DNA of 64,000 bases from a virus, in the IMG/VR virus record IMGVR_UViG_3300022745_000021, positions 32,001-96,000 of that record; one strand, written 5' to 3'. Shown piece after piece: positions 1 through 23,939 of this stretch; the first letter of the stretch is position 1, and the number at the start of each line of letters is the position of its first letter. The position numbers and the translations under genes were made by a program. Under the pieces are notes generated by a model. The model made no database searches and was not told where the DNA came from. It saw nothing but the letters and a program-made list of their open reading frames with translations.

Positions 1-188
1 AGCGGGAAGCCCGTGGCAAGGTCGAAGCGCATCTGCGCGCCGAACAGCGAGCGCGTGCCGCCGTTGCGCCCTTCGCGGCGATCCCCGGTGAGCAACACCG
101 CGTTGAGCAAGTCGAGGTAATGGCGCTCCGGGCTGTGGAAGTCCTCGGCGAAATACCGGGCGCTGGCGTTATCGTGGGGGGCGTTCAT
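1..188 (-). CDS. thyA: Thymidylate synthase, N-terminal part (runs off the left edge)
   Basis: Manual translation MNAPHDN...[42 protein letters not shown] matches the ThyA N-terminus (YLDL...GT.S.FG.QMRFDL..GFP); not in the ORF track. Confidence 0.9.
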
Positions 189-215
189 CGGGTGCTTTCC
201 AGACGTGTTGGTTGG

Positions 216-755
216 TCAGATCAGGCGCTGCATGGCGAGCTTGGTGACGTCCCGGCAGTGCGCGGCATATTCGGCGGTGGCTGGCGATATCATGATCCCG
301 GTCTTGACCGCGTAGAGCGGGAACACGGCGCCGGTGGGGTTCTCGAAGTCGTAGCCCTCGCCGCACCATTCGCTCATCACGTCGATTTCCTGCCAGCGGT
401 ACGCTCCCGCGCGCGGGATGAACTCGCGGAACCGGGATTTGATGACGGCGGCGCGGTTTCGCTCAAATGGATCGCGGAACAGGTCGCAGAACAGGAAGTC
501 GGCGCAGTCGAGGCCGAAGTCGCGGCGCTGTGCTTGCAGCGGGTTGCAAAATTCGATGAGGCGCAGCTTGCGGGATCGGTTCGGGGTCACCCGCCTGCCC
601 GGGACGTAGTACACGGCGGTGACCTCGGGCTTGGCGACGAGCATCGTAACGAACGCATCACTGGGGCCAAGGACGACCACCGTGCCTTTGACAGCGGGAG
701 CGTTGACGATCGCGCGCAGGGTTACCTCGTCGCGATTGGGGGCTGGATCGAGCAA
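216..755 (-). CDS. Hypothetical protein (real start probably TTG at 755)
   Basis: 3' part of ORF 216..1457; AGAAAGG upstream of the TTG, which lies just downstream of the 787-815 promoter. Confidence 0.55.
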   Translation of the reverse strand: MLDPAPNRDEVTLRAIVNAPAVKGTVVVLGPSDAFVTMLVAKPEVTAVYYVPGRRVTPNRSRKLRLIEFCNPLQAQRRDFGLDCADFLFCDLFRDPFERNRAAVIKSRFREFIPRAGAYRWQEIDVMSEWCGEGYDFENPTGAVFPLYAVKTGIMISPATAEYAAHCRDVTKLAMQRLI

Positions 756-786
756 GAGCTTCTGGCCTTTCTGGCGTTGAGAAAGG

Positions 787-815
787 AAGCTAGGTGGAAC
801 ACGTGTAGGTGTCAA
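787..815 (-). promoter_or_regulatory. Sigma70-type promoter with a motif-B operator in the spacer
   Basis: TTGACA-17 bp (CCTACACGTGTTCCACC)-TAGCTT; phased T-tracts upstream (about 850-877). Confidence 0.75.
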
Positions 816-928
816 GGTGATTATGCGTGCCGCGCGGTATGACCCACTGAAACCCCCCGAAAAATCCCACGAAAAAACCCGCCGCACGTCATCGGTGCAG
901 CGGGTTGCAAAATCAGCAGCGGGGACGA

Positions 929-1231
929 TCAGTCGGCGGGGTGGGCCTCCCCTTCCCCCGTGGCAGCCGCCCGGCGCCGGGTCAGTAGCGCGAACACCGC
1001 GACCAGCGGCCACAGCACGACCACGGCCATGCCGAACCCGCGCCCTACCCGGGTGAAGCGAAACGCGGCGAGGAGTTCGTGATCGTCGTAGCTCTGCGAG
1101 CGCGCGAGGGTTGCCAGTTCGGACAACCAGAGCCGCCGGCCTTGGCGCAGGTAGCACAAGACGGTGATGACCAGCAGGATCGCAAGGACCACGTTCATCT
1201 GTACGGCGTTGAGAAGGGTATTCGTGGGCAT
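929..1231 (-). CDS. Small membrane protein
   Basis: 100 aa with two hydrophobic segments. Confidence 0.6.
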   Translation of the reverse strand: MPTNTLLNAVQMNVVLAILLVITVLCYLRQGRRLWLSELATLARSQSYDDHELLAAFRFTRVGRGFGMAVVVLWPLVAVFALLTRRRAAATGEGEAHPAD

Positions 1232-1254
1232 CTGGCAGTGTCTTTCGTTCGGGG

Positions 1255-1359
1255 TCAGGCGGACGTGATCGCGGTGTCAGCCCGGCCGCCGCCGAAAACC
1301 TCCCCCGCGCGCTGCGTACTTGTGTTGGCGCTGGGGGCGTGAACGGTATTTGGTGCCAT
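1255..1359 (-). CDS. Putative 34-aa peptide
   Basis: GGAGG RBS before the ATG at 1359; promoter TTGACG-17-TAGACA at about 1446-1474. Confidence 0.35.
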   Translation of the reverse strand: MAPNTVHAPSANTSTQRAGEVFGGGRADTAITSA

Positions 1360-1776
1360 ATCCAAGGTCCTCCCCCCAGTATGTCGGTTGATGTTGCGCC
1401 CATCGCGGGCATGGCAAGGGGGCATTCCCCCCGTTCCTGATATGTGTCTACGTCCAACTTTGACGCGCGTCAACCTATCAAATCACCATAGGTTCCAAAT
1501 AAATTTCTTGAAATGTTGGATAACGTGAGTTTTTTGCGGTGTACCGGGCACATAGCAAAGGTCCGGGCGTAAAAATACCGTAAAAATGCATCAAACCGCT
1601 ATTCCGCGCCAAGTCAACCTGAACCGTTGTTCACTCTAGCTATGCAAATGATTGCGTTGCACGTCGCCCGGTGACTTGGCGGCCCTCCCCGTAACCGCAA
1701 ACGATGCTTCAAGCAACAAACGTACGTCGCACCGTCCGGCATGGCTTCCGGGGGCGTTGCCCGTGCCTCGCCCACG

Positions 1777-1814
1777 AAAAAGGCCCGGAAAGTGGTTTCC
1801 CACCTCCGGGCCTT
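1777..1814 (-). terminator. Rho-independent terminator
   Basis: AAGGCCCGGAGGTGG-GAAA-CCACTTTCCGGGCC hairpin followed by TTTTT on the minus strand. Confidence 0.85.
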
Positions 1815-1900
1815 GACGCTGCTGACACCACCAATTGGCAGCGGTGATGCCGGCGACCGGCAGGGGGAGGAGACCCACCCGTTACGGCCTTGCGCTTATC
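1777..1900 (-). ncRNA. Putative trans-acting sRNA (~125 nt) with anti-Shine-Dalgarno seed GGGUCUCCUCCCCCUGCCGG
   Basis: Own promoter (1906-1934) and own terminator, no ORF with an RBS between them, several hairpins. Confidence 0.65.
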
Positions 1901-1905
1901 GCTGG

Positions 1906-1934
1906 AAACTATGTCTGATGGCGCTGATTGTCAA
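1906..1934 (-). promoter_or_regulatory. Sigma70 promoter of the sRNA, embedded in the 3' end of the upstream CDS
   Basis: TTGACA-ATCAGCGCCATCAGACA (17 bp)-TAGTTT. Confidence 0.75.
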
Positions 1935-2523
1935 GGTCGAACAGCCGCTTCATTTCGTCTGGATCAAGCACTTGGCGCCCGTGCAGCCACATTTCGAGCA
2001 CCTGCCAGTCCTGCTCCGGGTTGCGCAGCACGATCGTTTGCGGGCCGGTCTGCGTCACCGCGTAGCCCGCGCAGCTGCCAAGGACGAACACCGCCGGCCG
2101 GTCGTCGGCCACCATCGGGTGCCCGGCGATCACCATGTCCGCATCGAGCGCGCCGGGGGTCAGCGTCTTGTCGTCGATCCGCTTGGCGTAGCGCGGCGCG
2201 GCAAGGTACGGGCACACCTGCACCGCGTAGCGCGCGCAGTCCTCGTGCATCGCGGGGTCGAGGAAGGCTCCCTGCGGGTGGGTGAAGCAGATCGGGCCGC
2301 CGATGAACCAAGCCCCCTTCCCTTCGTCCTTGAGCTTGTCGCCGCACAGCCCGCACAGGCCCTTGGTGGCGACTTCGAGCACGCGCATCTGGTCGCTGAT
2401 CGTGAAGTGCGCGCGCTTGCCCTTGTCCACCAGCGCCACGTAGGGGATCGGGTAGCCTCGGGGGTCCTTGGGCCGCTTGCGCAGGCGCTTGGGGACTTCG
2501 ATCGCGGTCTGGGTCGGCATCAT
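1909..2523 (-). CDS. Cys/His-rich phage hypothetical protein
   Basis: GYPIPY...LCGLCG...PAMHEDCARYAVQVCPYL; ATGA overlap with the upstream gene. Confidence 0.75.
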   Translation of the reverse strand: MMPTQTAIEVPKRLRKRPKDPRGYPIPYVALVDKGKRAHFTISDQMRVLEVATKGLCGLCGDKLKDEGKGAWFIGGPICFTHPQGAFLDPAMHEDCARYAVQVCPYLAAPRYAKRIDDKTLTPGALDADMVIAGHPMVADDRPAVFVLGSCAGYAVTQTGPQTIVLRNPEQDWQVLEMWLHGRQVLDPDEMKRLFDLDNQRHQT

Positions 2524-3074
2524 GCGGCAATCCTCGCGCGGCTGCGCCCCAAGGGCAAGGGATAGCGTTTCGTCGCCGGCACGCCGAGCGCCCAGTTGAT
2601 CTTGGCGCGGCTCACCGGGTGCCACTGGGTCTGATCGACGCACACCGAGACGTAGCGCTCGCTGGGGATCACGCGCGAGTGGAGGTGGCCGTGGACATTC
2701 GCCACCCACTGCCCGACTTGGCACGGGTGCACCGGGATGTGGGTCAGCACCAGCCCCTTGAGGTACTTGCAGCCGTGGACCTCCTCGAACATGTCGAAGC
2801 GCCCTTCCCGCATGTTGCCGTCCCAGTTGCCGCCGACCAGTCGCAGGCGGCCGGGCAGGTCGCGGAACACTTCGATGTCCTTGCCGGTGTCGCCGATCAT
2901 CCACACCACGTCCTCGGGCTGCACCAGCGTGCGCCAGTTGGCGATGATCGTGTCGGCCATCGCGGTCAGGCTCGGGAACGGGCGCGGGTTCTTGCCCGGG
3001 GTCAGCACCGACTTGTCGCCGAAATGCGTGTCGGCGATGAACCATTCGTTGGGTAGGGAAGCGGTAACGGTAAT
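2520..3074 (-). CDS. Calcineurin-like metallophosphoesterase (probable ATT start)
   Basis: Motifs ADTHF, IGD, GGNWD, LTHIP and NVHGHLH; the DxH motif lies upstream of the GTG start called in the track. Confidence 0.85.
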   Translation of the reverse strand: MTVTASLPNEWFIADTHFGDKSVLTPGKNPRPFPSLTAMADTIIANWRTLVQPEDVVWMIGDTGKDIEVFRDLPGRLRLVGGNWDGNMREGRFDMFEEVHGCKYLKGLVLTHIPVHPCQVGQWVANVHGHLHSRVIPSERYVSVCVDQTQWHPVSRAKINWALGVPATKRYPLPLGRSRARIAA

Positions 3075-3164
3075 GGGTAGTCTCCTCGGGTATGACGGGG
3101 CGCTGCCTTGCCCCCGGTTTGCTCTCTGCTCATACCGGTTTAGGGGTACGGCGTCAAGCGCTGT

Positions 3165-3749
3165 CTACAAATCGGTCTCGTCCTCGTCGGTCATGTAGCG
3201 GACAAACTCGTCGGGGTCGCGCGGCTGGAACGCGCCGGTGCGCACCATGCGGTCCCGTACCGCCAGCCCGCTCTCGTTGTCACCCCGGCAGGGGGCGAGG
3301 CGCGGATCGTCCGGGTCCACCCCGTTGGCAATCGCCATGTCGCGGTAGCTCGCGTAAAGCGCGACGCCGTCGGGGTTGCCGACGCGGTCCACATCGAGCC
3401 TGCCGTCCATCTGCGCGAAGCGGACGCCCATGTTGTTCGCCGCGTTGACCAGCAGGAAGCCCGCGCACGTCGCCGGGTTTTCCTTGCCGCTGTCGTGGCA
3501 GGCGAACGTGCTCATCGAGCCGTCATAGGCGGTGTTGGCGCTCACCCGGTACGCTTCGGCGGGGAAGAAGCCGATCGCGGCGTCCTTGCGCCACGGGCAG
3601 GTCGCGCACGGCTTGAGGCGGGCTACCGCCTTGGCTCCGTTGCTCTTGGTTTCGAGCCGGACGACCCCCCAGTCGGCGCCGTCACCGCCCTCCCCCACCG
3701 GCCGGACGCGGGTGGCCTCGGTCTGTCTGCGCTTGGACGTGGGCGTCAT
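3165..3749 (-). CDS. DUF6283-like Cys-rich protein
   Basis: PCATCPWRKD...FACH...CAGFL pattern; GAGGAGACC RBS. Confidence 0.7.
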   Translation of the reverse strand: MTPTSKRRQTEATRVRPVGEGGDGADWGVVRLETKSNGAKAVARLKPCATCPWRKDAAIGFFPAEAYRVSANTAYDGSMSTFACHDSGKENPATCAGFLLVNAANNMGVRFAQMDGRLDVDRVGNPDGVALYASYRDMAIANGVDPDDPRLAPCRGDNESGLAVRDRMVRTGAFQPRDPDEFVRYMTDEDETDL

Positions 3750-3894
3750 GGCGGTACGGTCTCCTCGGGTGGTTGCTGCCTGCCCCCTCGTACCATATGC
3801 CCGGTATATGGTCAAGAAATAGGGGTTGCAACCGCGTTGCAACCCCCTCCCCCCTCCGGGTTAATTTTCCGCGCCCGAGCGCGGGCAGACAGGA

Positions 3895-4350
3895 TCAGAC
3901 CAGCGCGTCGGTGATCGTGATCGTGTACTGCTTGTTCGCGTTGCTGTCCACGAGCGTGCCCGAGGCGACGATCGAGGCGGCGTTCTGCGAGCCGGTGATG
4001 TGGACCACCGAGGCGTTGGTGTAGACCGCGTCGAGCAGCGCAGCGTCGGCCGAGCCGGCAACCACCTTGAGGGTGATCGTGCGGGTCAGGACGGCGATGC
4101 CCTTGGTCTGCGAGCCGGTGTACGAGCCGTTCTTGCGGAACGAGCCATCGACGTTGGCGCGGATGAACGCGTCGAACGCAAGGTGGCGGTCGCGCACGGC
4201 GGCGACGTTGGTGAGGTTGGTCTTGTCGATGGCGAGACGGGTCACTTCCGCCTTGACACCGGCCCAGAACGAATAGGTGTCCTTGCCCTGAATGGCGCCA
4301 GCGAGGCTTTCCCAACCGCGCGGAACCTTGCGTGCATTCGAGTATTCCAT
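3895..4350 (-). CDS. Hypothetical protein, possibly a virion accessory protein
   Basis: AGGAGG RBS; Thr/Ala/Ser-rich, beta-like C-terminus; CTTCCTATATG promoter element upstream. Confidence 0.6.
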   Translation of the reverse strand: MEYSNARKVPRGWESLAGAIQGKDTYSFWAGVKAEVTRLAIDKTNLTNVAAVRDRHLAFDAFIRANVDGSFRKNGSYTGSQTKGIAVLTRTITLKVVAGSADAALLDAVYTNASVVHITGSQNAASIVASGTLVDSNANKQYTITITDALV

Positions 4351-4442
4351 GGAAGCCTCCTGTATGTGTAGGCAGCAACTAGCACTAGTGCCCCGCTCAT
4401 ATAGGAAGCGTCGTGGCGGGTGCAATACCGCCCGTGCGGGGG

Positions 4443-4787
4443 TTAATCCAACCCGCCCGCTGCAACGTGTTGCACCAGATCGTGGTAGCCGCCGACGTAC
4501 GCGCCCTTGACGAATATCTGCGGCACGGTGCGCGCGCTGCCCTCCAGTTCGAGGCCGTCGTAGAGCCGATCGCGCTCGGCTTGGGTTTCGAGCTTGAGCG
4601 TGATGTGCTCGGCCCCGAGCCGTTCCAGCAGCGCGTCCGTCCGGCGGCAGAACGGGCAGCCATCCTTGGAAAACACGACGATGCCCTCCTCCAGCGCGTC
4701 CCCGACCATGTCCCACGCGGCGGCGAGCGCGGCGTCGATGTCGTTGTCGGCGATGGCGGGCGGAATGATAGCGGCAGGAGCGTTCAT
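4443..4787 (-). CDS. Glutaredoxin
   Basis: CPFC active site, TVPQIF and GG motifs. Confidence 0.9.
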   Translation of the reverse strand: MNAPAAIIPPAIADNDIDAALAAAWDMVGDALEEGIVVFSKDGCPFCRRTDALLERLGAEHITLKLETQAERDRLYDGLELEGSARTVPQIFVKGAYVGGYHDLVQHVAAGGLD

Positions 4788-5362
4788 GGCGTATTCCTCT
4801 GGGTTGATGCGGCGTCTACATGTGTTGCTTGGGCGGGCCGAAAACAAGGCGCGGCCACTCCATACGGCGGCTTTCCGGGCGGACGATGATGGCGCGGGTC
4901 ACGCTTGGCGCGCTCGGCGCGCAGGAAATAGCGGGCAACCCGGTCGCAGTAGCCGTTGACCTTGCTGCGCGGATCACCGCCGCCGCTGTGCCCCTTCACG
5001 TGTCGCCATTCGAGCGTCAGGTTGTGCCGGGCAAGGAACTCCTGCGCGACCCGCGCGGTCTCGACACGGTCGGGCTGCTTGTGCCCGCCCTTCTTGGTCT
5101 TGGCCCCGGCAATCGCCACGCCGACGGCGTCGTTGTCGGTCTGCGCGACGATGGTATCGCCCGGCTGGATCACACCAGCCTTGAGGCCCATGTGGATGGT
5201 GTTGAGCAGCGCCCGGCTCTCGGCAACGGTCGTGCTGAACATCGCGTCCTTGAGCACCCCGCCGCCGCGCGCGGTGCCGCGTACGGACTTGACCCAGCCG
5301 CCCCACGTCCCGAGGCGCATGTGCGGGCACAGGCCCGCGTCGGAAAACACTGTCACCAACAC
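4784..5362 (-). CDS. rnhA: Ribonuclease HI-like protein
   Basis: FSDAG, AE, TDND, WRHVKGH and N.YCD.VA catalytic pattern. Confidence 0.85.
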   Translation of the reverse strand: MLVTVFSDAGLCPHMRLGTWGGWVKSVRGTARGGGVLKDAMFSTTVAESRALLNTIHMGLKAGVIQPGDTIVAQTDNDAVGVAIAGAKTKKGGHKQPDRVETARVAQEFLARHNLTLEWRHVKGHSGGGDPRSKVNGYCDRVARYFLRAERAKRDPRHHRPPGKPPYGVAAPCFRPAQATHVDAASTQRNTP

Positions 5363-5381
5363 GTGTTGCTCCGACGTGCAA

Positions 5382-5582
5382 TTAGATGAACAAGTCGGGT
5401 TGCGTCGAGACCAGCCGGTCCTCGCCCGAGAGCACGATGCGGCGCGCGAGACCCTTGCGGATCATGGTGGTCGCCCACGAGCGCGTCACGCCGCCGTCCT
5501 TGGGGGTGCCGATCGGTAGACCCCGCGCGCCGGCATGATTGAGCCGTTCCGAGGGGTTCCACGCTGACATCCACCGCTCCAT
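5382..5582 (-). CDS. Hypothetical protein
   Basis: Abuts the upstream gene; fills the operon gap. Confidence 0.45.
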   Translation of the reverse strand: MERWMSAWNPSERLNHAGARGLPIGTPKDGGVTRSWATTMIRKGLARRIVLSGEDRLVSTQPDLFI

Positions 5583-6023
5583 TCACTGGGAGCCTCCCGC
5601 GATCTCGGCGAGCATCACGTCGATCTGGTCCCGGGCAGCCTCTAGGTAACGCCGCTTAGCCTGCGCGCCCATGTCGGGCAACTCCCCCGTGGTCAGGCCC
5701 GGGCAGATGCTCGCCGCTTCCAGCATCGAGGCCGCCGCCGCGCCCATTTCGGCGGGCAGGTCGAACGCCATCAGCATGTACGCCGCGACCAGCCGCTGGC
5801 GCCGGTCGATCGGCATGCCGGGCCGGTGCTCGCGCACTTCCCAGTCAACCAAGGTGCCGTCCGGGTGCGTGACCCGGAACGAGCCTTGGTCGTCGCCGTA
5901 GTTGGCCTCCAGTTCGACTGCGAGCGCTTCGACGATCTCGGAAAGGTCGCTGATCTCGGAAAGCTCGGTGTTGCCCTGCACCTTGAGGGTGATCGTCGTG
6001 GTGGTGATCGGTGCCTTGCTCAT
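5583..6023 (-). CDS. Hypothetical protein
   Basis: ATGA-coupled to the upstream gene; phage-like codon use. Confidence 0.65.
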   Translation of the reverse strand: MSKAPITTTTITLKVQGNTELSEISDLSEIVEALAVELEANYGDDQGSFRVTHPDGTLVDWEVREHRPGMPIDRRQRLVAAYMLMAFDLPAEMGAAAASMLEAASICPGLTTGELPDMGAQAKRRYLEAARDQIDVMLAEIAGGSQ

Positions 6024-6385
6024 AGCTCGGCCATCCATTCCCGGTCACCCCAGAGCACCACGGCGTTGCCGGCGATGTAGTCGCGGGCGGACAGGCGGGT
6101 TTCCGGCGCGAGCAGCCCGGCGCGCTTGGCGACGCGTTCCCATTCGAGCGTCGCGGGATCGTTCACGGGCTTGAGCGGGCCGCCGTAGGCACCCTTGGCC
6201 CCCTCGTCGATATAGACGACGCAGCGCTGCTTCTCGTCGCCGAGCAGGGTGTCCCAGCCGGGCACCTTTTCCATGTACTGGCACTCCAGCGCCGCGTAAA
6301 TCTCTTGCAGGCTCGGCACCCGGCCGTCGCAGGTGGTGGTCTCGGTCGTGCCATCGGGCCGGATGACCCGCATGTAACCCTTCAT
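6020..6385 (-). CDS. DUF3846-like protein
   Basis: LQ...YIDE.AK...L.PVN..AT...DYIAGNAVV pattern; GAGGAGAC RBS. Confidence 0.65.
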   Translation of the reverse strand: MKGYMRVIRPDGTTETTTCDGRVPSLQEIYAALECQYMEKVPGWDTLLGDEKQRCVVYIDEGAKGAYGGPLKPVNDPATLEWERVAKRAGLLAPETRLSARDYIAGNAVVLWGDREWMAEL

Positions 6386-6428
6386 GGTGAAATGTCTCCT
6401 CTTGCTGCCGGCTACGAGTATAGCAAAA

Positions 6429-6719
6429 TCACGTTTCTACGTCAAGCGCAGGCTCCGGGGGAAGGCCGTGTTCATACCAGTCCGCGTAGGCCAGATGCCG
6501 GCCTTCTGGGGGAAGCCCTTCCCGCTTGCAACCGGCTGCAAACCCGGCGCAGGGTCGCACTTCGCCCGGCTCGGCGCTGTGGCAGCCCCAGTTGAGGCCG
6601 CGCTCGCGCTTCCAGCCCATGATCTCGAACACCGAGGGCACGCAGCCGAGGTTGATCGCGTTCTCCGCGCGGTCCGAGTGCGAGAACGGGTAGGTAGGGC
6701 ACATTTTCGCGGCGCTCAC
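6429..6719 (-). CDS. Cys-rich DUF6283-like paralogue
   Basis: CPTYPF...WGCH...PCAGF; GTGA overlap. Confidence 0.55.
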   Translation of the reverse strand: MSAAKMCPTYPFSHSDRAENAINLGCVPSVFEIMGWKRERGLNWGCHSAEPGEVRPCAGFAAGCKREGLPPEGRHLAYADWYEHGLPPEPALDVET

Positions 6720-7234
6720 CGCTCGCCCTCCCCGCTGCCCGATCGCGTCCGCGTGCCGCACCCTGCCCTGTCGGGTCGCCAGAAGCGCGCGGCGCGGCCT
6801 TCGGGGTTCTCGTGGTGGAGCAGGAACGCGTTGGGGTTGTCGAACGCCTCGCGCGACGCCTCCAGCGTGGTCTCGGCGACCGCATGCGCGGCGCTGCCAC
6901 AGGGGTGGCCGGGGATCAGGCCCATATTGCGCCGAAACGCCGCCAGACCGGCGCAGGAACGCGGCCGGTCGGCGTCGGGATCGTGGTGGGTGGCGACATG
7001 CCCGTCGAAGTGCTTCGACATGTGGCAGGCGATGTCAGCGGGGCCGAACGCGGCTTCGAGGTACATCGTCGGGGTCCAGCCGCCGAGCGCCCCGGGGACG
7101 GCGTCCTTGCGCCACGGGCACCCATTGCAGGTCTTTTTCGCCGGGCTGCGAAAGCCCTTGGCGGCTGGGACGAGCTTCAAATCCTGCGACAGGGCGTCGT
7201 CAGGCGTGCGGGGGTTGGGTCGGGCTTGCGCCAT
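6716..7234 (-). CDS. DUF6283-like Cys-rich protein
   Basis: TCNGCPWRKD...IACH...SCAG; GAGGAGACC RBS. Confidence 0.7.
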   Translation of the reverse strand: MAQARPNPRTPDDALSQDLKLVPAAKGFRSPAKKTCNGCPWRKDAVPGALGGWTPTMYLEAAFGPADIACHMSKHFDGHVATHHDPDADRPRSCAGLAAFRRNMGLIPGHPCGSAAHAVAETTLEASREAFDNPNAFLLHHENPEGRAARFWRPDRAGCGTRTRSGSGEGER

Positions 7235-7282
7235 AGGTGTAGGTCTCCTCGTTTGCTGCCGAGGACACCTTACACCCGTGGG

Positions 7283-7324
7283 CGCAATAATCAACCCCTA
7301 GATTTGTAGGGGTTGATTATTGCG
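7283..7324. repeat. Perfect 18-bp inverted repeat with a 6-nt loop
   Basis: CGCAATAATCAACCCCTA-GATTTG-TAGGGGTTGATTATTGCG. Confidence 0.9.
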
Positions 7325-7778
7325 AGAGGCGGACGATGACCGAACCGGTCGAACGCGTGAAGTCGAGGTAGTAGGTCTCACCGACCTCCGACGGGATGAT
7401 CGCCAGCTTCTCCTGCGCGTTCCCGGTGAACTGCGCGTAGGCCGCGCCGCCCTGCGTCACCGGCAGCTTGGTGGTGCCGCCGTCGATCGAGCGCAGCAGC
7501 TTGACCGTGCCGGTCCACGTGCCGGACAGCGTCAGCCACATCGCGCGGCCCAGCTGCGGAACAAACGCGTCGCTCTGCCCGGTGGCGTTCAGCGTCGCGA
7601 CCAGCGGGGTGGAACCGGCCGCTCCGACATCGGGGACGAACGAGCCATCCTGATCGACGCCGCCGGTGACCACGGCCATCGCCTGCGGGGACGTCCTGTC
7701 GCCGGCAACCAGCGGCACCGCGCCGTAGAACATCCGGCCGTCGCCAGCATCGAACTTGGAGAGGGTGGGCTTGGGCAT
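7317..7778 (-). CDS. Hypothetical beta-rich protein, possibly structural
   Basis: LSGTWTGTVKLLRSIDGGTT motif; CTTCCTATATG element upstream. Confidence 0.65.
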   Translation of the reverse strand: MPKPTLSKFDAGDGRMFYGAVPLVAGDRTSPQAMAVVTGGVDQDGSFVPDVGAAGSTPLVATLNATGQSDAFVPQLGRAMWLTLSGTWTGTVKLLRSIDGGTTKLPVTQGGAAYAQFTGNAQEKLAIIPSEVGETYYLDFTRSTGSVIVRLSQ

Positions 7779-7884
7779 GGTCGGTCCCCTGTCTGTGTGG
7801 GTTTCGCGTCAGCCCCCCATATAGGAAGGGGGCCGAGCCGATCAACAGCCCGGCCCCCTCGCCCGTTGCAACTGGTTGCAACCG

Positions 7885-8523
7885 TCAGTCGGCCAGCACC
7901 GACGTCTTGGCGTTGGTGATCGCCTCGCGCGCGGCCGGGGTCAGGAACCACGTGAACCCCTCCCCCGTGCGCCTGCCCTCGCTGCGCACGAGTGCCCCGG
8001 CAACCTCCAGCGTCCGAATGCGGTTGCCCGTTTCCTTGACGCTCTTGTCGATCAGCGTGGCAATCGAGCGCGTCGTCAGGCCCTCGCGGAACACGTACAG
8101 CGCCCGCATGATCTGCCTACCCGTGTTCTCCCGCTCGGCCAGCGGCGTGTGCCGGCGGGTCCGCATGGTCGCCGTCACCTCCGTGACCGGTTCTTCGGGG
8201 GCAGGCTTGTGCGAAAGCACCACCGGGCGCGCTACCGCCGCCGGATCGAGCTTGGAGACCACGTGTTCGCGCGGCGGGAGCATGACTGGGATCGGCGTGC
8301 CGCTGACGGCGTGGTTGACCAGCCCGCCCGTCGGGGTACGGCGATCCCAAGGGTACTTGGACGGCTCGGTCGGGGCGGGGAACGCTTCCTCGGGGGTGGC
8401 CCACGCGATCAGCGTTCCAGTGTGCTCGGCCTTGCACGGCGCATCGGTTTCGGGGCGCAGGGGATCGCCGATCGGGCGCAATTCCTGCCCGAACAGCGCG
8501 AAGAACTTGTCGATGATACGCAT
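7885..8523 (-). CDS. Protein with a C-terminal winged HTH
   Basis: GLTTRSIATLIDKSVKETGNRIRTLEVAGALVR. Confidence 0.65.
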   Translation of the reverse strand: MRIIDKFFALFGQELRPIGDPLRPETDAPCKAEHTGTLIAWATPEEAFPAPTEPSKYPWDRRTPTGGLVNHAVSGTPIPVMLPPREHVVSKLDPAAVARPVVLSHKPAPEEPVTEVTATMRTRRHTPLAERENTGRQIMRALYVFREGLTTRSIATLIDKSVKETGNRIRTLEVAGALVRSEGRRTGEGFTWFLTPAAREAITNAKTSVLAD

Positions 8524-10397: not shown

Positions 10398-10524
10398 TGT
10401 GTCTGGTCTCCTCTAGCTACCTACATGTGTTCTACATCGCGCCGCCTACACGCGCAACATAATTTTACGTCAAACGGTTGCACGGATATTTGCAACTCGT
10501 TGCACCGCGATTATCTCTCGGGGC

Positions 10525-13575: not shown

Positions 13576-13967
13576 GCCCGGGCGATCTCCTCTACCGTCG
13601 CCCGCCGGACGCGCACGTAGTCGAAATCCATGTCGTCGTCGGACGAGAACCCGTCGCCCCGGTGGTACACGGCGGTGACGCCCTCCATGACCCACCAGCC
13701 CTCGCCGGGGCAGTCGATCAGCCCGCCCACGGCGTAGTCGAGGAAACTGCCGTACGCCTGTTCGTAGCTGGCCGCGCCGGTGACGCCCTCGGCGCCGTTC
13801 AGCACGGTCGCGCTCTCGATGCTGTGCTTGCCAACGCCCCAATGCGGATCGGTCTGGTCGGCGTACTCCTCGGCCACCACCTCGAAGATGACATCCTCGG
13901 GCGAGTTGAAGTCAAACTTCTCCGGTTCTTCGTCGCGGGCTGGATCGGCTGCGATCAGGTCGGTCAC
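13572..13967 (-). CDS. Acidic hypothetical protein
   Basis: GGAGG RBS; GTGA overlap. Confidence 0.65.
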   Translation of the reverse strand: MTDLIAADPARDEEPEKFDFNSPEDVIFEVVAEEYADQTDPHWGVGKHSIESATVLNGAEGVTGAASYEQAYGSFLDYAVGGLIDCPGEGWWVMEGVTAVYHRGDGFSSDDDMDFDYVRVRRATVEEIARA

Positions 13968-17281: not shown

Positions 17282-17379
17282 CAGAACATGTCCTCCAGCC
17301 CCTTGGCCGCGTCACGGCCGAGCTTGTACCCGAACCCGCGCAGGATGGCGCGCAGGAGGATGGACAGGATATTTCCCAT
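17281..17379 (-). CDS. 32-aa amphipathic peptide MGNILSILLRAILRGFGYKLGRDAAKGLEDMF
   Basis: First ORF after a cassette promoter; GAGGAGACC RBS at canonical spacing. Confidence 0.65.
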   Translation of the reverse strand: MGNILSILLRAILRGFGYKLGRDAAKGLEDMF

Positions 17380-17535
17380 GGTGGTTGGTCTCCTCGTTCT
17401 TGTAGCGTAGGGGCTGGCCTGCCTGCCGCCCTACACGTGTTGCTTAGACCAACGGGGCCTACACGTCAAGCGTTTTGAGGTGCAACTGGGTTGCAACTGG
17501 TTGCAGTCGCCGGAAGCGCTACCCCCCCTGCCCGC

Positions 17536-18063
17536 CTACCCGGCCTTGTCCGCGTTGGCGCTGGCCCATAACCGCGCCGCGCCCATGCCCGCCCGAATGC
17601 AGCGCAGGGCGAACGTCCCGGGGGCAGCACCCTTGGCGTTGACGAACCCGGCGAACGTCCGCTGCCAGCCTTGGTCGAAGAACTTCTGGTAGGTCTCGCG
17701 CGGCCAGTCAGGGTGCCCCGCAAAGAATACATCCGCCCGTCGCTGGCGGTAGGTCGCGCCGACGTCGGGGTCCGCCTCGGATAGTACCTGTTTGATCCGG
17801 GGCATGTTGTCGCGGCTGCGCTCCGGTGTCATACCGATCGCCAGTTGCGGGGCGCGCTTGGGGGGCGGCGGGGGCGTAGGCGCCGGCAGGTTTTCCAGCG
17901 CATCCCAGATCACGCCGTGGATGACTTCGCGCAGCTGGTCACGCGCCTTGGGTACGCGCCGCCGGGTGTCGGTCATCAATCGCTGCCACAGATCGCGGCG
18001 GCCGGTGACGTCTTGGGCAACCCGGGCGTGTATCGCCGCCGCCGCCGCACGTGGATCGGTCAT
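17536..18063 (-). CDS. Hypothetical protein
   Basis: ATGA overlap. Confidence 0.65.
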   Translation of the reverse strand: MTDPRAAAAAIHARVAQDVTGRRDLWQRLMTDTRRRVPKARDQLREVIHGVIWDALENLPAPTPPPPPKRAPQLAIGMTPERSRDNMPRIKQVLSEADPDVGATYRQRRADVFFAGHPDWPRETYQKFFDQGWQRTFAGFVNAKGAAPGTFALRCIRAGMGAARLWASANADKAG

Positions 18064-18338
18064 GTGTCTTCGCTTGCCCCCTCGATCACGCGCCAAAGCT
18101 CCCAGATCGCGGTCTTGCGGTAGCATTGTTCGGCGGCAAGCTCGATACCGTACGCCGCCTTGAACGCGTCGCGCATCCGGGCGTGATCGTCGGCGTAGAT
18201 CATGCCGTCACCGAGATCGCCCAGCGTGTCGCCCATGTCGATCGGCACGGACGCAGGCAGCGCGTACACCCGGCGGACCAGCGCCAGCAGACGCAGTTCC
18301 TCGGGGGAGTAATCGGGGCCGGATACAGGGACACTCAC
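18060..18338 (-). CDS. Acyl-carrier-protein-like protein lacking the DSL serine
   Basis: IDMGDTLGDLG...FKAAYGIEL...TAIWELWRVI resembles the ACP helix pattern. Confidence 0.4.
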   Translation of the reverse strand: MSVPVSGPDYSPEELRLLALVRRVYALPASVPIDMGDTLGDLGDGMIYADDHARMRDAFKAAYGIELAAEQCYRKTAIWELWRVIEGASEDT

Positions 18339-18454
18339 GGCGTCAGCCCCCGCTTCTGGTCGAGCCGACCGCAGCACGTGCACTTGTCAGACAGGTGGTC
18401 CCAGAACACCCAGTGGTGCCGGCCTAGGAACAGGCAGCGAAATAGCTGGATCAT
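18335..18454 (-). CDS. 39-aa Cys/His peptide (DUF1660-like)
   Basis: MIQLFRCLFLGRHHW...CTCCG; coupled overlaps at both ends. Confidence 0.55.
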   Translation of the reverse strand: MIQLFRCLFLGRHHWVFWDHLSDKCTCCGRLDQKRGLTP

Positions 18455-18792
18455 GCGTCCGTCTTTCCGCCGACCTCACTCGGCATAAACGTATGCGCCA
18501 CCCGGGATGCTCTGTGCAGCAAATCGTACAGCCTTGGGTCGAAGTACCGCAGCGTCGGGGGCATATGGTGCACCGCGTCCATGATCGCCCCCCGCAATGC
18601 TGCCACAAGCTGTTCGGGGTCAACCGGGGTGTCCGGTCGTTTGCGCGGCTCGCGATCCAGCGCACCCGCCGCGATCTCCGCTAGGAACTTGGCGTTGTTG
18701 GCCTCCCGCTCGGCAAGCTCGGTAGCCATGCGGGATTGGGCAAGCCCCACCTGACTGTCCAGCAAATCGGCGTATGGGTGACGATCCGTCAC
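18451..18792 (-). CDS. Hypothetical protein
   Basis: GGAGG RBS; GTGA overlap. Confidence 0.65.
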   Translation of the reverse strand: MTDRHPYADLLDSQVGLAQSRMATELAEREANNAKFLAEIAAGALDREPRKRPDTPVDPEQLVAALRGAIMDAVHHMPPTLRYFDPRLYDLLHRASRVAHTFMPSEVGGKTDA

Positions 18793-19088
18793 GCGTCATC
18801 CTCCGGTGTCTTGGCGCGCACCACCAGCAAAGCGTTGTTGGCGAACACATCGACGTATTCCAGCCACAGCCCTTGCTCGGCAAGGTAGACGTGATTGGCC
18901 TCCATCACCGCGCCCGGGAGCGTGAACGGGGTGACTTCCTCGGTCCACTTCTCGCCGACCACCATCAGCGCCGGGCGGGTGCCCTGTGACCCCTCCAACT
19001 TGCCGATCTGCACGTCCAGCGCCGGGCCGACGTTCTTGAGGGCGACGCGCGCTTTCTGTTCGGGGGTAAGCGGTAGCTTGGTAACCAT
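18789..19088 (-). CDS. Hypothetical protein
   Basis: GGAGA RBS; motif-C promoter at 19121-19145. Confidence 0.65.
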   Translation of the reverse strand: MVTKLPLTPEQKARVALKNVGPALDVQIGKLEGSQGTRPALMVVGEKWTEEVTPFTLPGAVMEANHVYLAEQGLWLEYVDVFANNALLVVRAKTPEDDA

Positions 19089-19182
19089 GGTGCGGGTATC
19101 TCCGTTGTCTGTCCCTGACCATACCACGCACGCGGTATTACGCAAGCGAAAAAGCGCGCCCTAGTTGCAACTGGTTGCAAAC

Positions 19183-19452
19183 TTACTCCCCACGCGCCAC
19201 GCTGGTGGCCTGCCCCGCCGCGAAGATGCCTTCCCAGAACCGCCACTGGTCATCGCTGCCGACAAGCTCGACCTCGGGGCCGTGCCCATGGGCCGCCCGC
19301 CACAGATCGCCGATCCAGCGGCGCACCTTGAGGCGTTCCGGCGGCAACGGGGTAGGGATCAGCAGTTGATCCAGCGGCAGGCCGGGGGTCGGCTTCGTGC
19401 GGGTGACGTCGGCAGCGCTGCCGCGCGGATGTTCATTGGTGGTAGCGGGCAT
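19183..19452 (-). CDS. Hypothetical protein
   Basis: GAGGAGACCC RBS. Confidence 0.6.
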   Translation of the reverse strand: MPATTNEHPRGSAADVTRTKPTPGLPLDQLLIPTPLPPERLKVRRWIGDLWRAAHGHGPEVELVGSDDQWRFWEGIFAAGQATSVARGE

Positions 19453-19537
19453 AGTTATGGGTCTCCTCGGATGTGGGACTACCTTAGCAGGGCGGGGCAG
19501 CCCTCGCCACCCCTGCCCTGCCCCGGTGTCGGTCGGA

Positions 19538-19942
19538 TCACGCCGCCTTGGCGAGCTTGGCGGCTGCCGTGGTGATGCAGCCAAAGCCGAGCAGCCGCAC
19601 CTCGGCGGTCGCGGCATCGACGACGACGTAGCGGTTGCTGGTGTGGCACACGACGTAGACGGTCCGGCCGACGGTGGTGCGCACCTTGCCCAGCACGGCC
19701 GAACGCGGCACGCCGTAGCGCTCGCAGGTATTCTGGATGGTTTCCTCGACCTTGGCCGCCATGTCCACCGGGGCCATCACCCCGTTGGGGTACGCCTTGT
19801 CGAACCTGGCGCGCAGCACGATCGGGTTGGCGTCGTAGTCGCGGGCCACCTCGGTGATGGACTGGTCGAGGTCCTTGCCGTTGCGGACGTCCATGGTGAC
19901 GTCGAGCAGCAGGTCGTTCCAGTTGATCGGGGTCTGGGTCAT
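19538..19942 (-). CDS. Early hypothetical protein
   Basis: First gene of a cassette. Confidence 0.75.
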   Translation of the reverse strand: MTQTPINWNDLLLDVTMDVRNGKDLDQSITEVARDYDANPIVLRARFDKAYPNGVMAPVDMAAKVEETIQNTCERYGVPRSAVLGKVRTTVGRTVYVVCHTSNRYVVVDAATAEVRLLGFGCITTAAAKLAKAA

Positions 19943-20045
19943 CGTTGGTCTCCTCGGTAATCGGTCTGGCCTGCCTGCCGTTCCGATGCCCCCTTGTACC
20001 ACGCTGGCGGTGCACGTCAACAGAAAAGTGCAACCGGGTTGCAAA

Positions 20046-20225
20046 TTATTCGTCGCCCCCGGGCGTCGCGGCGAGTGCAGCCTGCGCGTCCTCGAAGGTG
20101 TCAGCGTGGCCCAGCACGTCGAAGACATCCTTGCGGCGGTTGCCCGGGTTCGGCCGGTGCGTGCCATAGTCGTACCCGTCCGCGCCGTCGCGGCGATTGG
20201 TGGCGGTGATGAACGTGCGAAGCAT
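20046..20225 (-). CDS. Hypothetical protein
   Basis: GGGAG RBS; 59 aa. Confidence 0.55.
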   Translation of the reverse strand: MLRTFITATNRRDGADGYDYGTHRPNPGNRRKDVFDVLGHADTFEDAQAALAATPGGDE

Positions 20226-20256
20226 GGGGGTCACTCCCGTTGCAACTGGTTGCAGC

Positions 20257-20286
20257 AAAAAGGGGAGAGGATCGCTCCCCTCCCCC
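20257..20286 (-). terminator. Rho-independent terminator
   Basis: GGGGAGGGGA-GCGA-TCCTCTCCCC followed by TTTTT. Confidence 0.8.
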
Positions 20287-20302
20287 GGTTGGATCGGCTG
20301 GA

Positions 20303-20605
20303 TCAGGCGACGGCCAGCGCGTGGACCTGTTCTGCGGTCAGCGTGGGGGCCAGCTTCTTTTCCTCGCGGGCCAGCTTCACGAACGGCTGGAGGTACTTGT
20401 AGACGTTGTTCTTTGCCTTGAACTCGGACTTGGTCTTGCCGATCAGCGCCAGCACCTCGTCGCGCGTCATGTCAGCGGCGTCGAGCATCGCCAGCAGAAT
20501 GTCCCAGCCCCGGCCGTTGTCCTTGTAGGTCTCGGCGTGGGCGACGACGACGGCGAACAGGTCGGCGGCGGGGACGATCGCGGGAACAGTGGCTTCGATG
20601 GTCAT
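20303..20605 (-). CDS. Early hypothetical protein
   Basis: First gene of a cassette; strongly biased codons. Confidence 0.75.
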   Translation of the reverse strand: MTIEATVPAIVPAADLFAVVVAHAETYKDNGRGWDILLAMLDAADMTRDEVLALIGKTKSEFKAKNNVYKYLQPFVKLAREEKKLAPTLTAEQVHALAVA

Positions 20606-20778
20606 GGTAGGTCTCCTCTATCAGCGGGGCGGTGGCCTGCCTGCCAACCGCTCTTGATGTCTGATAGTACCACGCTGGCGGTACACGTCAACCGAAAAAA
20701 GCACGGGCGCACCAATTATTTTCCCGGGGTCCGAAATTCAGGCGCGCGACGGCATGTCAGTTTTTCGCACCACACTGG

Positions 20779-20833
20779 CGGTATGATGCAGCCACGTCCA
20801 CGGTATGGGTGGGCGGTATGGGTCACGGTATGG
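20779..20833. repeat. Four CGGTATG direct repeats (motif-C half-sites)
   Basis: Copies at about 20779, 20801, 20814 and 20826 in a non-coding gap. Confidence 0.7.
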
Positions 20834-20859
20834 GCGTAGTTGCAACCGGGTTGCAATAC

Positions 20860-21213
20860 CTACCCTAGGTCGATCACCCGACGCATACGGGTGTCACGGG
20901 TGTGCACCCTCGGTCCACGTTCCCACTCATCCCGTCGGCAGTTCCACAGCAACTCGTCATTGCCGTCTGGTCGCTTGACTGCGACAGCGAAGCGATAGTG
21001 GTTCAGTGCGTATACGGTCCCCTGCACAAGGTGCGAGTTGGTTGACAGGATGCGTCCCGGCCTCTCCGGGTGTGGGTAGTCCGCGAAGTACCCGCATATC
21101 ACGGGTACACGGCTATGGACGATCTCTCCGTCCTTGAAGGGGTGGGTGTTCTCCGCGCCCTCCTGCTGTGGATCGTCTCCCGCGCGTTCGGTGAAGTCGA
21201 GTTGCCGTGCCAT
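20860..21213 (-). CDS. Hypothetical protein
   Basis: 117-aa ORF; C-terminus RMRRVIDLG. Confidence 0.6.
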   Translation of the reverse strand: MARQLDFTERAGDDPQQEGAENTHPFKDGEIVHSRVPVICGYFADYPHPERPGRILSTNSHLVQGTVYALNHYRFAVAVKRPDGNDELLWNCRRDEWERGPRVHTRDTRMRRVIDLG

Positions 21214-21214
21214 G

Positions 21215-21421
21215 TCAGTCCGTATCCAGCTTCCGTCTGATCCTGCGTCCTATGGTGTTACGTGTGCTCGGTGTCCTCTGCGCCTCACTGGTTTGGCTTT
21301 CCCCCGCGCCCTGCACGTCGTTGGTCACTGCGTCAGCTTCCCCGCGCGTTTGTCGGCCCGCATGATCCCGGTAGGCGATCACGACGTTCAGCAGCGCGTT
21401 GAGCAGTCGGAATACCATCAT
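21215..21421 (-). CDS. Hypothetical protein
   Basis: GGGAGA RBS; 68 aa. Confidence 0.5.
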   Translation of the reverse strand: MMVFRLLNALLNVVIAYRDHAGRQTRGEADAVTNDVQGAGESQTSEAQRTPSTRNTIGRRIRRKLDTD

Positions 21422-21439
21422 GGGTGATCTCCCCGCGCG

Positions 21440-21955
21440 TCAGTCAAGGTCGATGATCCTCTTGGTGCGCTTGCGGGTGTTCTCCCGCGCGTTGCGTTCG
21501 GTCTCGATCTCCGCTTTGGTCTCTCCCCGGCGCCGTTCGTAGGCGAGCAGCATCGTGCGCAAGTGCAGGTCTGCCTTCGGCCCCAGCGTCACGTGCACGT
21601 CCAGCGTCATCATGTCGCGCTCGGTTGCGATCAGTCCCTGCGCCTCTGCGTTGCGGATGGCCCACGCGCTGTCGCGGTCACGATCGGTCATACCAAACGC
21701 CACCACCACCTTGCCGTCGAGGTAGGCGTCCAGTAGGAGGTCGGCGATGTCTATCCTGTCGCGTGATCTCCCCGGTCGGCGTTCCTCGCGCAGTTGCTTG
21801 GCGGCTGCCAGCAGGCGGTGGCCTAGCTCGTTCTCCTCGCGCTGCATTGCAGCCAGTTGCAACATTTGGTCATCGGACAAGCTCGTGGAGGGCACGCCCA
21901 ACGCGGCCAACCGGTCCAGTTCTGCGCGTAGGCGGCTGCGGCCTTCGGGCGACAT
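21440..21955 (-). CDS. Hypothetical protein
   Basis: TGATG coupling; C-terminus KRIIDLD. Confidence 0.6.
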   Translation of the reverse strand: MSPEGRSRLRAELDRLAALGVPSTSLSDDQMLQLAAMQREENELGHRLLAAAKQLREERRPGRSRDRIDIADLLLDAYLDGKVVVAFGMTDRDRDSAWAIRNAEAQGLIATERDMMTLDVHVTLGPKADLHLRTMLLAYERRRGETKAEIETERNARENTRKRTKRIIDLD

Positions 21956-22161
21956 CAGTCTTCGTCCTCGTCTTCGGCGTTCCCCGCGCCCGGCGACACG
22001 ACGGTGCAGGTGTAAACCGGCACGCGCTCGATCGTGCATTCCAGCGCGACGCCGCAACCCTCGCACACGGTCACGCTCTTGTGGTGGTCGTGGTAGCATT
22101 CCGGGCACGTGTACCGGTTGTCCCACGGGGTGTTGGTGAGTTGGTCTCCGACTGCCATCAT
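21955..22161 (-). CDS. Small zinc-ribbon protein
   Basis: CPEC...CEGC. Confidence 0.6.
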   Translation of the reverse strand: MMAVGDQLTNTPWDNRYTCPECYHDHHKSVTVCEGCGVALECTIERVPVYTCTVVSPGAGNAEDEDED

Positions 22162-22472
22162 GCGTCTCCCTGCGCGGGCAGATAGTGCCGCCTGCGCATT
22201 TCCCTGCCGTACTCGATACCGGTGGCGATCCACCACGACGCCGGCATGTCGCCAAGGTAGGGGATCATTTCACTGCGGTCGTCGCTGACCCACGTGTCCC
22301 CCGCGCCCGGCTTGAGGCTGGTCGGGCGGTACTGGTTCGCCTTGCGCTCGGCAGCGTCGGTGGGGAAAAGGCCGTTGTCGAACGAGTAGTAGTGGTAGCC
22401 CTCCCCGCGCACCAGTTCGACGCACGGCTCCACGCGCTGGATGCGCTCGTTGATCTGTTTCAGCGTCGCCAT
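22158..22472 (-). CDS. Hypothetical protein
   Basis: GGAGG RBS. Confidence 0.65.
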   Translation of the reverse strand: MATLKQINERIQRVEPCVELVRGEGYHYYSFDNGLFPTDAAERKANQYRPTSLKPGAGDTWVSDDRSEMIPYLGDMPASWWIATGIEYGREMRRRHYLPAQGDA

Positions 22473-22475
22473 GCG

Positions 22476-22769: not shown

Positions 22770-22890
22770 CGTTGGTCTCCTCGGTCCCGGTCGGCCTGCC
22801 TGCCTGCCCGGTGAAATCACCTTAGAACATGTGGGTTGCAACGCAAGCGAAATCTGCCGGCGTTGCAACCCGGTTGCAAATTGTTGCCCG

Positions 22891-23936: not shown

Positions 23937-23939
23937 GGA

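Follow-up and report, generated by a model that had tools for sequence, protein, structure and literature searches.

A Candidate Anti-Leader Small RNA in the 3′ Untranslated Region of a Freshwater Phage Gene

Introduction

Where the timed shut-off of early phage genes is understood, the agents are mainly proteins, as in phage T4, where RegA is a translational repressor protein and RegB an endoribonuclease that cuts at GGAG. Among RNA regulators, c4 of phages P1 and P7 is an antisense RNA that shares a transcript with its only target operon, icd-ant, and is released from it by processing, and in enterobacteria small RNAs (sRNAs) such as MicL in cutC and DapZ in dapB arise at gene 3′ ends from promoters that lie inside the coding sequence. 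Here, we analyze a candidate sRNA on the minus strand of a phage genome, at positions 1777–1934 of a 64,000-nucleotide (nt) stretch of DNA (hereafter “the window”) that comprises bases 32001–96000 of the IMG/VR virus record IMGVR_UViG_3300022745_000021; coordinates are those of the window unless marked as genome positions. Sequence and modeling together leave, in our judgment, about an even chance that this region encodes a phage anti-leader sRNA, embedded in a 3′ untranslated region (3′UTR), that would bind the phage's own leaders at two sites.

In overall design, the closest described RNAs are those of the ar14/cuckoo family (Rfam RF02344; e.g., NfeR1 = SmrC14 of Sinorhizobium meliloti and CcsR1-4 = RSs0680a-d of Rhodobacter sphaeroides), in which adjacent hairpins carry CCUCCUCCC in their loops and block ribosome-binding sites (RBSs; PMC4615179, PMC10746234). 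The family is defined by two to four adjacent hairpins without multiloops and with loops of 9–27 nt (PMC4615179), and each hairpin loop holds the same ultraconserved CCUCCUCCC, unpaired (PMC4615179, PMC10746234). Our candidate resembles these RNAs in its length of ~120 nt, in its adjacent hairpins (three, thus within the family's range), in a pyrimidine-rich anti-Shine-Dalgarno (anti-SD) motif presented in a loop, in the proposed occlusion of the RBSs of many mRNAs (PMC10746234), and in its association with an upstream gene, since CcsR RNAs are co-transcribed with theirs as the candidate would be with a gene of 204 amino acids. It differs in that only its first hairpin has the motif (UCUCCUCCC, eight of nine positions of CCUCCUCCC), with the CCC paired; in that its loops measure 6 and 8 nt; in that its second loop is the leader-specific CUGCCAAU and its terminator loop GAAA; and in that it is phage-encoded, with the phage's own leaders as its best predicted targets. 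A covariance search with RF02344 scored 15.8 bits on the minus strand (1776–1887; E = 2.1), below the gathering threshold of 58.8 bits. On this sequence evidence the candidate is not an ar14/cuckoo member, and the parallel with cuckoo/CcsR-type sRNAs drawn in a first-pass annotation of the locus does not extend to membership.

In genomic arrangement the candidate resembles MicL and DapZ: its predicted promoter lies in the 3′ end of an upstream coding sequence, the mRNA terminator is common to both transcripts, and the seed lies in the 3′UTR, though there is no homology to these sRNAs. Functionally, c4 is the closest phage precedent, in that two exposed segments of that RNA pair with two leader sites, one of them covering the RBS, and thereby block phage gene expression; the candidate, however, would regulate a large number of distinct transcripts in trans, and the Rfam C4 family gave no match at E up to 10 in 1200–2100. 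Closest in concept are RegA and RegB, i.e., phage factors that recognize a feature common to early-mRNA initiation regions and shut genes off as a group, but both are proteins whereas the effector proposed here is an RNA. Described phage trans-acting sRNAs are likewise phage-borne and base-pairing and, in the sections of the two reports drawn on here, act on host genes or machinery, with none reported there to target a leader element that recurs ahead of the phage's genes (PMC12197685; 10.1101/2024.10.31.621285).

A Candidate RNA Between a Stop Codon and Its Terminator

The upstream gene is Cys/His-rich, has no assigned function, and occupies 1909–2523 on the minus strand according to coding-frame analysis. 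It forms the C-terminal part of the frame 1909–3045, with an ATG at 2523 (MMPTQ...) and a TAG stop at 1911–1909, and across its 91 homologues both the end point and a D-x-x-R motif near the C-terminus are conserved. The candidate promoter falls within the last codons and stop of this gene. The −35 box TTGACA (1929–1934, minus) lies within codons Leu-Asp-Asn and the −10 box TAGTTT (1906–1911, minus), 17 nt past it, contains the stop codon; the spacing predicts a transcription start at the A at 1899 (minus), 7 nt after the −10 box, from which the RNA would be ~120–125 nt long. Because the −10 box agrees with TATAAT at only three of six positions, a simple consensus promoter scan missed the site.

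Judged by the phage's own promoter set, the predicted promoter is credible. More than 20 sites upstream of RBSs in this phage read TTGACR or TTGCAN, 16–17 nt, TAnnnn, and their −10 boxes include TATGAA, TACGTA, TAGGAA, and TAGAAG. Across the 105-kb genome the pattern TTGAC[AG]-N16-17-TA occurs 19 times in the minus sense vs. 2 times in the plus sense, and of the minus-sense sites the remaining 18 fall largely or entirely outside called genes and ahead of genes, which makes the candidate's site the sole one inside a gene. With a background of ~2 per strand, a chance promoter match is unlikely to land only a few tens of nucleotides from a structured non-coding stretch.

Beyond the stop codon, 1908–1777 constitutes the 3′UTR and terminator of the 204-amino-acid gene. 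In the strong intrinsic terminator (1777–1814, minus), a GC-rich stem of 15 pairs that has a one-base bulge and is capped by a GAAA loop (1814–1780) leads into a U5 tract at 1781–1777; the bulge is probably why a simple terminator scan missed it, and on the plus strand the stem is followed by just UU. The upstream mRNA uses the same terminator, which is the only one, ~95 nt past the stop codon with none between, and those ~95 nt contain no coding-type frame. The first-pass annotation had described a TTGACA-17-TAGTTT promoter and a terminator bracketing a segment with no translatable open reading frame (ORF), and both signals are indeed present on the minus strand (1934–1906 and 1814–1777) with no coding-type ORF between them.

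Minus-sense transcription of the region is almost certain because nearly all genes lie on the minus strand and the region falls between a stop codon and its terminator. As we read the sequence, transcripts running through from the 204-amino-acid gene must yield the same minus-sense sequence as a 3′UTR, whatever the status of the promoter. Since the −35 box sits in the last codons, the −10 box contains the stop, and the terminator belongs to the upstream gene, this anatomy makes the region a 3′UTR-embedded sRNA candidate and not the stand-alone unit proposed initially.

In the minus sense, the RNA is predicted to form three adjacent hairpins, i.e., hairpin 1 (hp1), hairpin 2 (hp2), and the terminator (hp3). 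Hp1 (1855–1889) exposes the anti-SD hexaloop UCUCCU (1873–1868; unpaired probability 0.97–1.0), which extends to the longer complement GGGUCUCCUC (1876–1867) able to pair with GAGGAGACCC. Hp2 (1821–1854) has a 10-pair stem that includes three G·U pairs and an octaloop, CUGCCAAU (1841–1834; unpaired probability 0.77–1.0), that is the complement of GGCAG(C). With the terminator included, the fold reaches −70.3 kcal/mol (z = −3.96) in the minus sense vs. −62.2 kcal/mol (z = −2.88) in the plus sense, and six G·U pairs in the predicted stems are standard only in the minus sense, becoming C·A mismatches in the plus sense. For hp1 and hp2 alone, z is −1.9, and the two-hairpin fold makes up 56% of the ensemble. 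As a separate observation, the 5′ arm of the terminator (1780–1814, minus) has a canonical SD-like GGAGGUG complementary to the CCUCC of hp1, a match that is probably incidental because no competing fold is predicted.

Repeated Leaders and Their Ribosome-Binding Sites

The sequence that hp1 would recognize serves this phage as an RBS. GAGGAGAC has 24 copies in the window vs. 2.1 expected from shuffles (both strands of the 64-kb window), 23 of them on the minus strand as RBSs, and the lone plus-strand copy (1867–1874) lies opposite the candidate. Whole-genome counts are 28 minus vs. 1 plus; the complement, GUCUCCUC, accordingly has a single copy on the minus sense of the whole genome. Pairing with the canonical 3′ end of 16S rRNA accounts for the AGGAG core only, and the conserved flanks of that core (G...ACC) are complementary to GGGUCUCCUC in hp1.

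Two leader classes stand out. Class I is exemplified by 23603–23650 (minus), where a 5′-proximal hairpin, CGGGC-AGGCAG-GCCCG, lies ~10 nt ahead of GAGGAGACC and ATG; further copies, all on the minus strand, are at 17379–17432, 19939–19986, 20602–20656, 22766–22812, 24813–24862, 25385–25432, 27476–27520, 28849–28896, 29870–29918, and 35913–35960. These leaders belong to a promoter-leader cassette with at least 11 copies on the minus strand over ~17.4–36 kb (17379–36000; complete stretches include 23603–23681, 20602–20691, and 24813–24896), which reads, in order, TTGACR, a spacer that contains GTACC-N7-9-GGTAC, an extended −10 box TGGTAYnnn, ACATC, the AGGCAG-loop hairpin, GAGGAGACC, and ATG. 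The hairpin loop is always AGGCAG, while in an alignment the stems vary by copy and keep their pairs through two-sided changes. A covariance model (R1) built from eleven class I copies recovers them at E-values of 9e-15 to 2e-9 and, when the leaders are folded singly, GGCAG falls in the loop with an unpaired probability of ~1.0. The AGGCAG-loop leader hairpin is a real repeated element with variable stems and, by itself, a good candidate for a cis-regulatory RNA.

Class II is exemplified by 6386–6445 (minus), in which TTGACG-N17-TATACT is followed by CCGGCAGCAAGAGGAGAC and an ATG at 6385, with minus-strand paralogues at 57010–57069 and, outside the window, at genome 97625–97684. The three promoters read TTGACGTAGAAACG... 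(at 6445, 57069, and genome 97684), and the class follows the pattern TTGACGTAGAA(A/C)C... with −10 boxes TATACT, TATACC, or TACAAG. Class II transcripts probably begin at GGCAGCAA or immediately ahead of it; this sequence runs directly into GAGGAGAC, leaving a 5′UTR of only ~25 nt.

Predicted Pairing with Phage Leaders

We calculated hybrid energies corrected for the opening of both partners (duplexfold plus constrained ensemble energies, own script; plain duplex energies, computed for 41-nt vs. 57-nt sequences, were dropped as unrealistic in favor of the accessibility-corrected ones) for 126 initiation regions (−55 to +15), with 252 internal coding 70-mers and permuted loops as controls. The hp1 apex matched 33 initiation regions at ≤−6 kcal/mol and 19 at ≤−8 kcal/mol, compared with at most 10 and 1 for 19 other orderings of the loop, and the hp2 loop matched 29 and 7, compared with means of 3.7 (maximum 14) and 0.3 (maximum 1) for 28 permuted loops. 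Each loop therefore outdid every permutation tried (19/19 and 28/28) in predicted binding to initiation regions, and among the internal segments only 1% were matched by hp1 and 10% by hp2. Both loops together matched 17/126 initiation regions vs. 1/252 internal segments. Of these dual targets, nine are class I leaders and three are the class II leaders; the remaining five precede genes that start at 47554, 14428, 10397, 9319, and 3749. Initiation regions of the phage are thus strongly enriched among predicted targets, and so are GGCAG leaders, as the first-pass annotation would have had it. Ten of the predicted target proteins were scanned against PHROGs, and none received an assigned function.

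The geometry of the pairing differs from that first envisaged. The RNA does carry GGGUCUCCUC-CCC-CUGCCGG in the minus sense (1876–1857), and the leaders named earlier as its complements (6394–6411, 57014–57036, 7242–7261, 30826–30842, and 27486–27506) do contain GGCAG...GAGGAGAC. The class I cassettes, however, space GGCAG and the SD sequence by 4–12 nt (in motif matches) vs. 3 nt in the RNA, and CUGCCGG (1857–1863, minus), formerly taken as the half that confers specificity, is predicted to be paired in the 3′ (descending) arm of hp1, all but one of its first five bases having an unpaired probability of ~0.02. Linear two-part pairing would need hp1 to be opened at a cost of ~21 kcal/mol and is net favorable only for the leaders at 57009 (−13 kcal/mol), genome 97145 outside the window (−9), genome 308 (−9), and 6385 (−8). 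Because of this cost and the spacing misfit of class I, two separate loop contacts—hp1 with the SD sequence, and the CUGCC of the hp2 loop with the class I hexaloop (5 base pairs) or with GGCAGC at the class II 5′ end (6 base pairs)—make the better model. The best single predicted target, the leader at 57010–57036 (minus; GCCGGCAGCAAAAGAGGAGACCCAGACA followed by ATG), reaches net energies of −13.2 kcal/mol with the hp1 apex and −8.1 kcal/mol with the hp2 loop, and the 6385 leader reaches −7.8 and −8.4 kcal/mol, respectively. The leaders at 14428 and 10397 read GGUAGC and could still pair with GCUGCC via G·U, which fits RNA–RNA recognition in an anecdotal way.

The combination of motifs is rare: in the minus sense of the genome, CUCCUC and two copies of CUGCC fall together in just three 130-nt stretches, of which that of the candidate alone also has GUCUCCUC. 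When the genome was searched for paralogues of the RNA, none emerged, and the single 19-nt match, at genome 101085, lies within a membrane-protein coding sequence.

From this anatomy, predicted fold, complementarity, and enrichment, we infer a transcription start, a discrete transcript, pairing in vivo, and repression as the direction of the effect, and propose the following model. A host σ70-type promoter in the last codons of the 204-amino-acid gene, read-through of the mRNA, or both would give rise to a minus-sense RNA of ~120–125 nt. Its hp1 loop UCUCCU (extendable to GGGUCUCCUC) would pair with the phage-specific RBS GAGGAGAC(CC), and its hp2 loop CUGCCAAU with GGCAG(C), which at least 11 cassette leaders display as an invariant AGGCAG hexaloop and which leaders of the GGCAGCAA class carry at their 5′ ends. 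Binding at both sites would occlude the RBSs of ~17 phage mRNAs, mostly of small genes without assigned function that have their own promoters, and as the RNA accumulates it would turn these ~17 mRNAs down as a group. Group silencing by one sRNA had been suggested before: the predicted fold, the 19:2 strand bias of the promoter pattern, and the target enrichment argue for it, and the part that falls away is linear pairing, which is favorable for three or four leaders only. The more specific picture, in which a two-loop antisense RNA, encoded at the 3′ end of a gene cluster in a lytic-type phage, reads the phage's own SD flavor, kisses an invariant 5′-hairpin hexaloop that has been copied ahead of at least 12 genes, and so co-regulates separate transcripts, we hold as a tentative possibility somewhat short of an even chance.

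Alternative Explanations

Several points weigh against an anti-leader sRNA. A CUCCUC by a terminator in a GC-rich genome, along with the common CUGCC (~1 per 440 nt), could arise by chance, and a rough joint estimate that allows for freedom of choice gives p ~0.001–0.01, which is not negligible. As cassette leaders are paralogues, the number of independent leader types behind the 17 dual targets is perhaps five to seven; enrichment for hp2 by itself is only ~2-fold (23% of initiation regions vs. 10% of internal segments); and its loop–loop contact with class I is just 5 base pairs long. A protein could equally well be what binds the invariant AGGCAG loop. The permutation controls probe the order of loop bases and not evolutionary history or descent. 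The nearest IMG/VR and JGI relatives share ≤51% amino-acid identity in the neighboring gene without keeping the gene order, and searches with leader model R1 gave no significant match in two relatives from IMG/VR or in the Rhizobium phages L338C and RHph_I4.

The main competitor, which we consider unlikely but by no means negligible, is an ordinary 3′UTR with stabilizing hairpins and a terminator whose complementarity to leaders is fortuitous. The region spans exactly the interval from stop codon to terminator, the single plus-strand GAGGAGAC in 105 kb is near the composition expectation (~2 per strand, an estimate), CUGCC is frequent (236 minus-sense copies), and hp1 plus hp2 reach only z = −1.9 once the terminator is removed. 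Such a 3′UTR would not lead one to expect that both motifs fall in predicted loops and that each outdoes the tested arrangements of its own bases for initiation regions, nor the 17/126 vs. 1/252 dual matches, nor a site of the phage's own promoter pattern just upstream. A further reading, with which none of the observations conflicts, takes the RNA to be host-directed, in the style of ar14, NfeR1, and CcsR, with the CUCCUCCC loop mainly silencing host mRNAs and the match to the phage's leaders secondary. The hp1 apex UCUCCUCCC does share eight of nine positions with the cuckoo motif CCUCCUCCC (PMC4615179), ar14 is the sole minus-strand Rfam match to span the whole three-hairpin unit (and does so over the full model length), and the closest phage relatives infect Rhizobium. 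We nonetheless think it improbable, given that the score falls at 15.8 of the 58.8 bits of the gathering threshold (E = 2.1), that the motif occupies one loop only and is partly paired there, and that the extension GGGUCUCCUC fits the phage-specific GAGGAGACCC and not the canonical GGAGG(U).

Function could also reside in the opposite strand, as a decayed inverted promoter-leader copy or as a plus-sense leader mimic that titrates a leader-hairpin factor. Read in that sense the region is leader-like: TTGACG (1813–1818) precedes a hairpin with AUUGGCAG and then CCGGCAG-GGG-GAGGAGACCCACCC, matching the 57009 leader at 18 of ~22 positions, and a mimic would be laid out as a UGGCAG-loop hairpin, GGCAG, and GAGGAGACC with no start codon. 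Yet model R1 has no plus-strand match here (1819–1887), even at E up to 10, and on that ground the inverted-cassette relic was rejected; by eye, there is no promoter with a usable −10 box, the TTGACG at 1813–1818 having none at 16–18 nt; no start codon falls at the normal 4–8 nt and the downstream frame is non-coding; the six G·U pairs turn into C·A mismatches, with a fold 8 kcal/mol weaker; and almost all transcription units, including all those near the region, run in the minus direction. Plus-strand function thus strikes us as about as doubtful as a host-directed role. Least probable of all, and only slightly credible, is action in cis, whereby the 3′UTR loops contact the leader at the start of their own mRNA (from cassette-type promoters near 3157 or 3830), giving 5′–3′ communication, or the hairpins serve as an attenuator of downstream read-through. 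The mRNAs that end at this terminator do begin with the same kind of leader, 3749 being a dual target and 3087 having an AAGGCAG-loop hairpin, but no antiterminator fold competes with the three-hairpin structure (56% of the ensemble), the next gene lies 545 nt downstream with its own promoter-like site (1473–1445), and action in cis would leave unexplained why a dozen further leaders match.

Phage Setting and Relatives of the Locus

The virus record is 104,959 bp long, classed as linear by IMG/VR, and 96% complete according to CheckV. Its GC content is ~66%, and third-position GC analysis places almost every gene on the minus strand. The closest named relatives are the Rhizobium phages RHph_I4, P11VFA, and vB_RleS_L338C (108–110 kb), with ~44% amino-acid identity in DNA polymerase. 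It is an uncultivated freshwater phage and a distant relative of Rhizobium phages L338C and RHph_I4, and its host is probably a GC-rich proteobacterium. When public runs were searched for the phage's DNA, two freshwater-metagenome DNA runs matched and no RNA run did; the first is probably the source, and the second carries the same phage at ~2× depth with identical sequence. In the window, no tRNA or tmRNA genes were found and Rfam at gathering thresholds gave zero matches; megablast of 1–8000 against GenBank phages gave no match.

Relatives of the locus are distant. An IMG/VR search with the neighboring protein recovered two loci at 40–46% identity with different genes behind the homologue, and JGI metagenomes yielded 80 loci, the best at 48–51% identity, in which gene order differs; an IMG/VR search with the phage DNA polymerase gave no match. 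The closest homologues of the 204-amino-acid gene (P0002–P0006; 55–60% identity) occur in Logan assemblies only. In one related locus (L006), GTCTCCTC just past the homologue was dismissed since it lies inside a convergent 634-amino-acid ORF.

The exact 18-mer GGGTCTCCTCCCCCTGCC has four matches in IMG/VR, a number within the chance range, and three of them look coding. The other lies on an unrelated 36-kb viral contig of 65% GC (L085, IMGVR_UViG_2831790597_000001; 13780–13860, minus), where the identical 18-mer sits in a short 3′UTR and directly abuts an 11-bp terminator with a U7 run. The site also matches the mmgR family weakly (Rfam RF00519, listed as suhB), at 18.8 of the 41 bits needed, and that phage is without GAGGAGAC RBSs. 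The match may be due to chance, or may reflect a recurrent anti-SD plus terminator module in GC-rich phages.

Neighboring Features

Several features near the region merit mention in their own right. The gene at 2523–3074 (minus) has metallophosphoesterase-like motifs (DTHFGD, GD, GNWD) and a weak PDB match (1xm7, E = 5e-5) with no Pfam match. No ATG, GTG, or TTG lies upstream of its first catalytic motif, and an ATT at 3072–3074 (minus) stands 5 nt past GAGGAGAC, where other cassettes carry ATG; the gene therefore probably starts at this ATT.

Downstream of the candidate, 1232–1776 comprises ~545 nt with no coding-type frame and an AT-rich core (1478–1612, ~42% GC). A 14-bp perfect palindrome, TTGACGCGCGTCAA (1459–1472), overlaps the promoter-like TTGACG-N17-TAGACA (1473–1445, minus), and two minus-strand copies of ATTTTTAC lie close together (GTAAAAAT at plus-strand 1569–1576 and 1581–1588). 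This stretch may be a replication origin or control region. Elsewhere, a palindrome-like motif, CTACACGTGTAG(G), occurs in or beside promoter-like sites at 787–815, 10413–10470, 17441–17469, and 46029–46057 and at genome 104345–104373, and may be an operator for a phage regulator.

Implications

The sRNAs of virulent phages are only starting to be described and, in those sections of the literature on which we draw, are mostly aimed at the host. If the anti-leader reading is true, the RNA proposed here would be an RNA counterpart of T4 RegA and RegB, with the leader hairpin as its address label. It would represent a new regulatory layout in which one phage RNA reads a repeated leader module (i.e., a hairpin loop plus an RBS) on many of the phage's own transcripts. 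Such a layout would account for a leader loop that stays invariant while its stems drift, and for conserved flanks of the SD core (G...ACC) that rRNA pairing does not need. With a single ~125-nt RNA and ~50-nt leaders as its components, the system is compact enough to be tested entirely with synthetic parts even though the phage itself is uncultivated.

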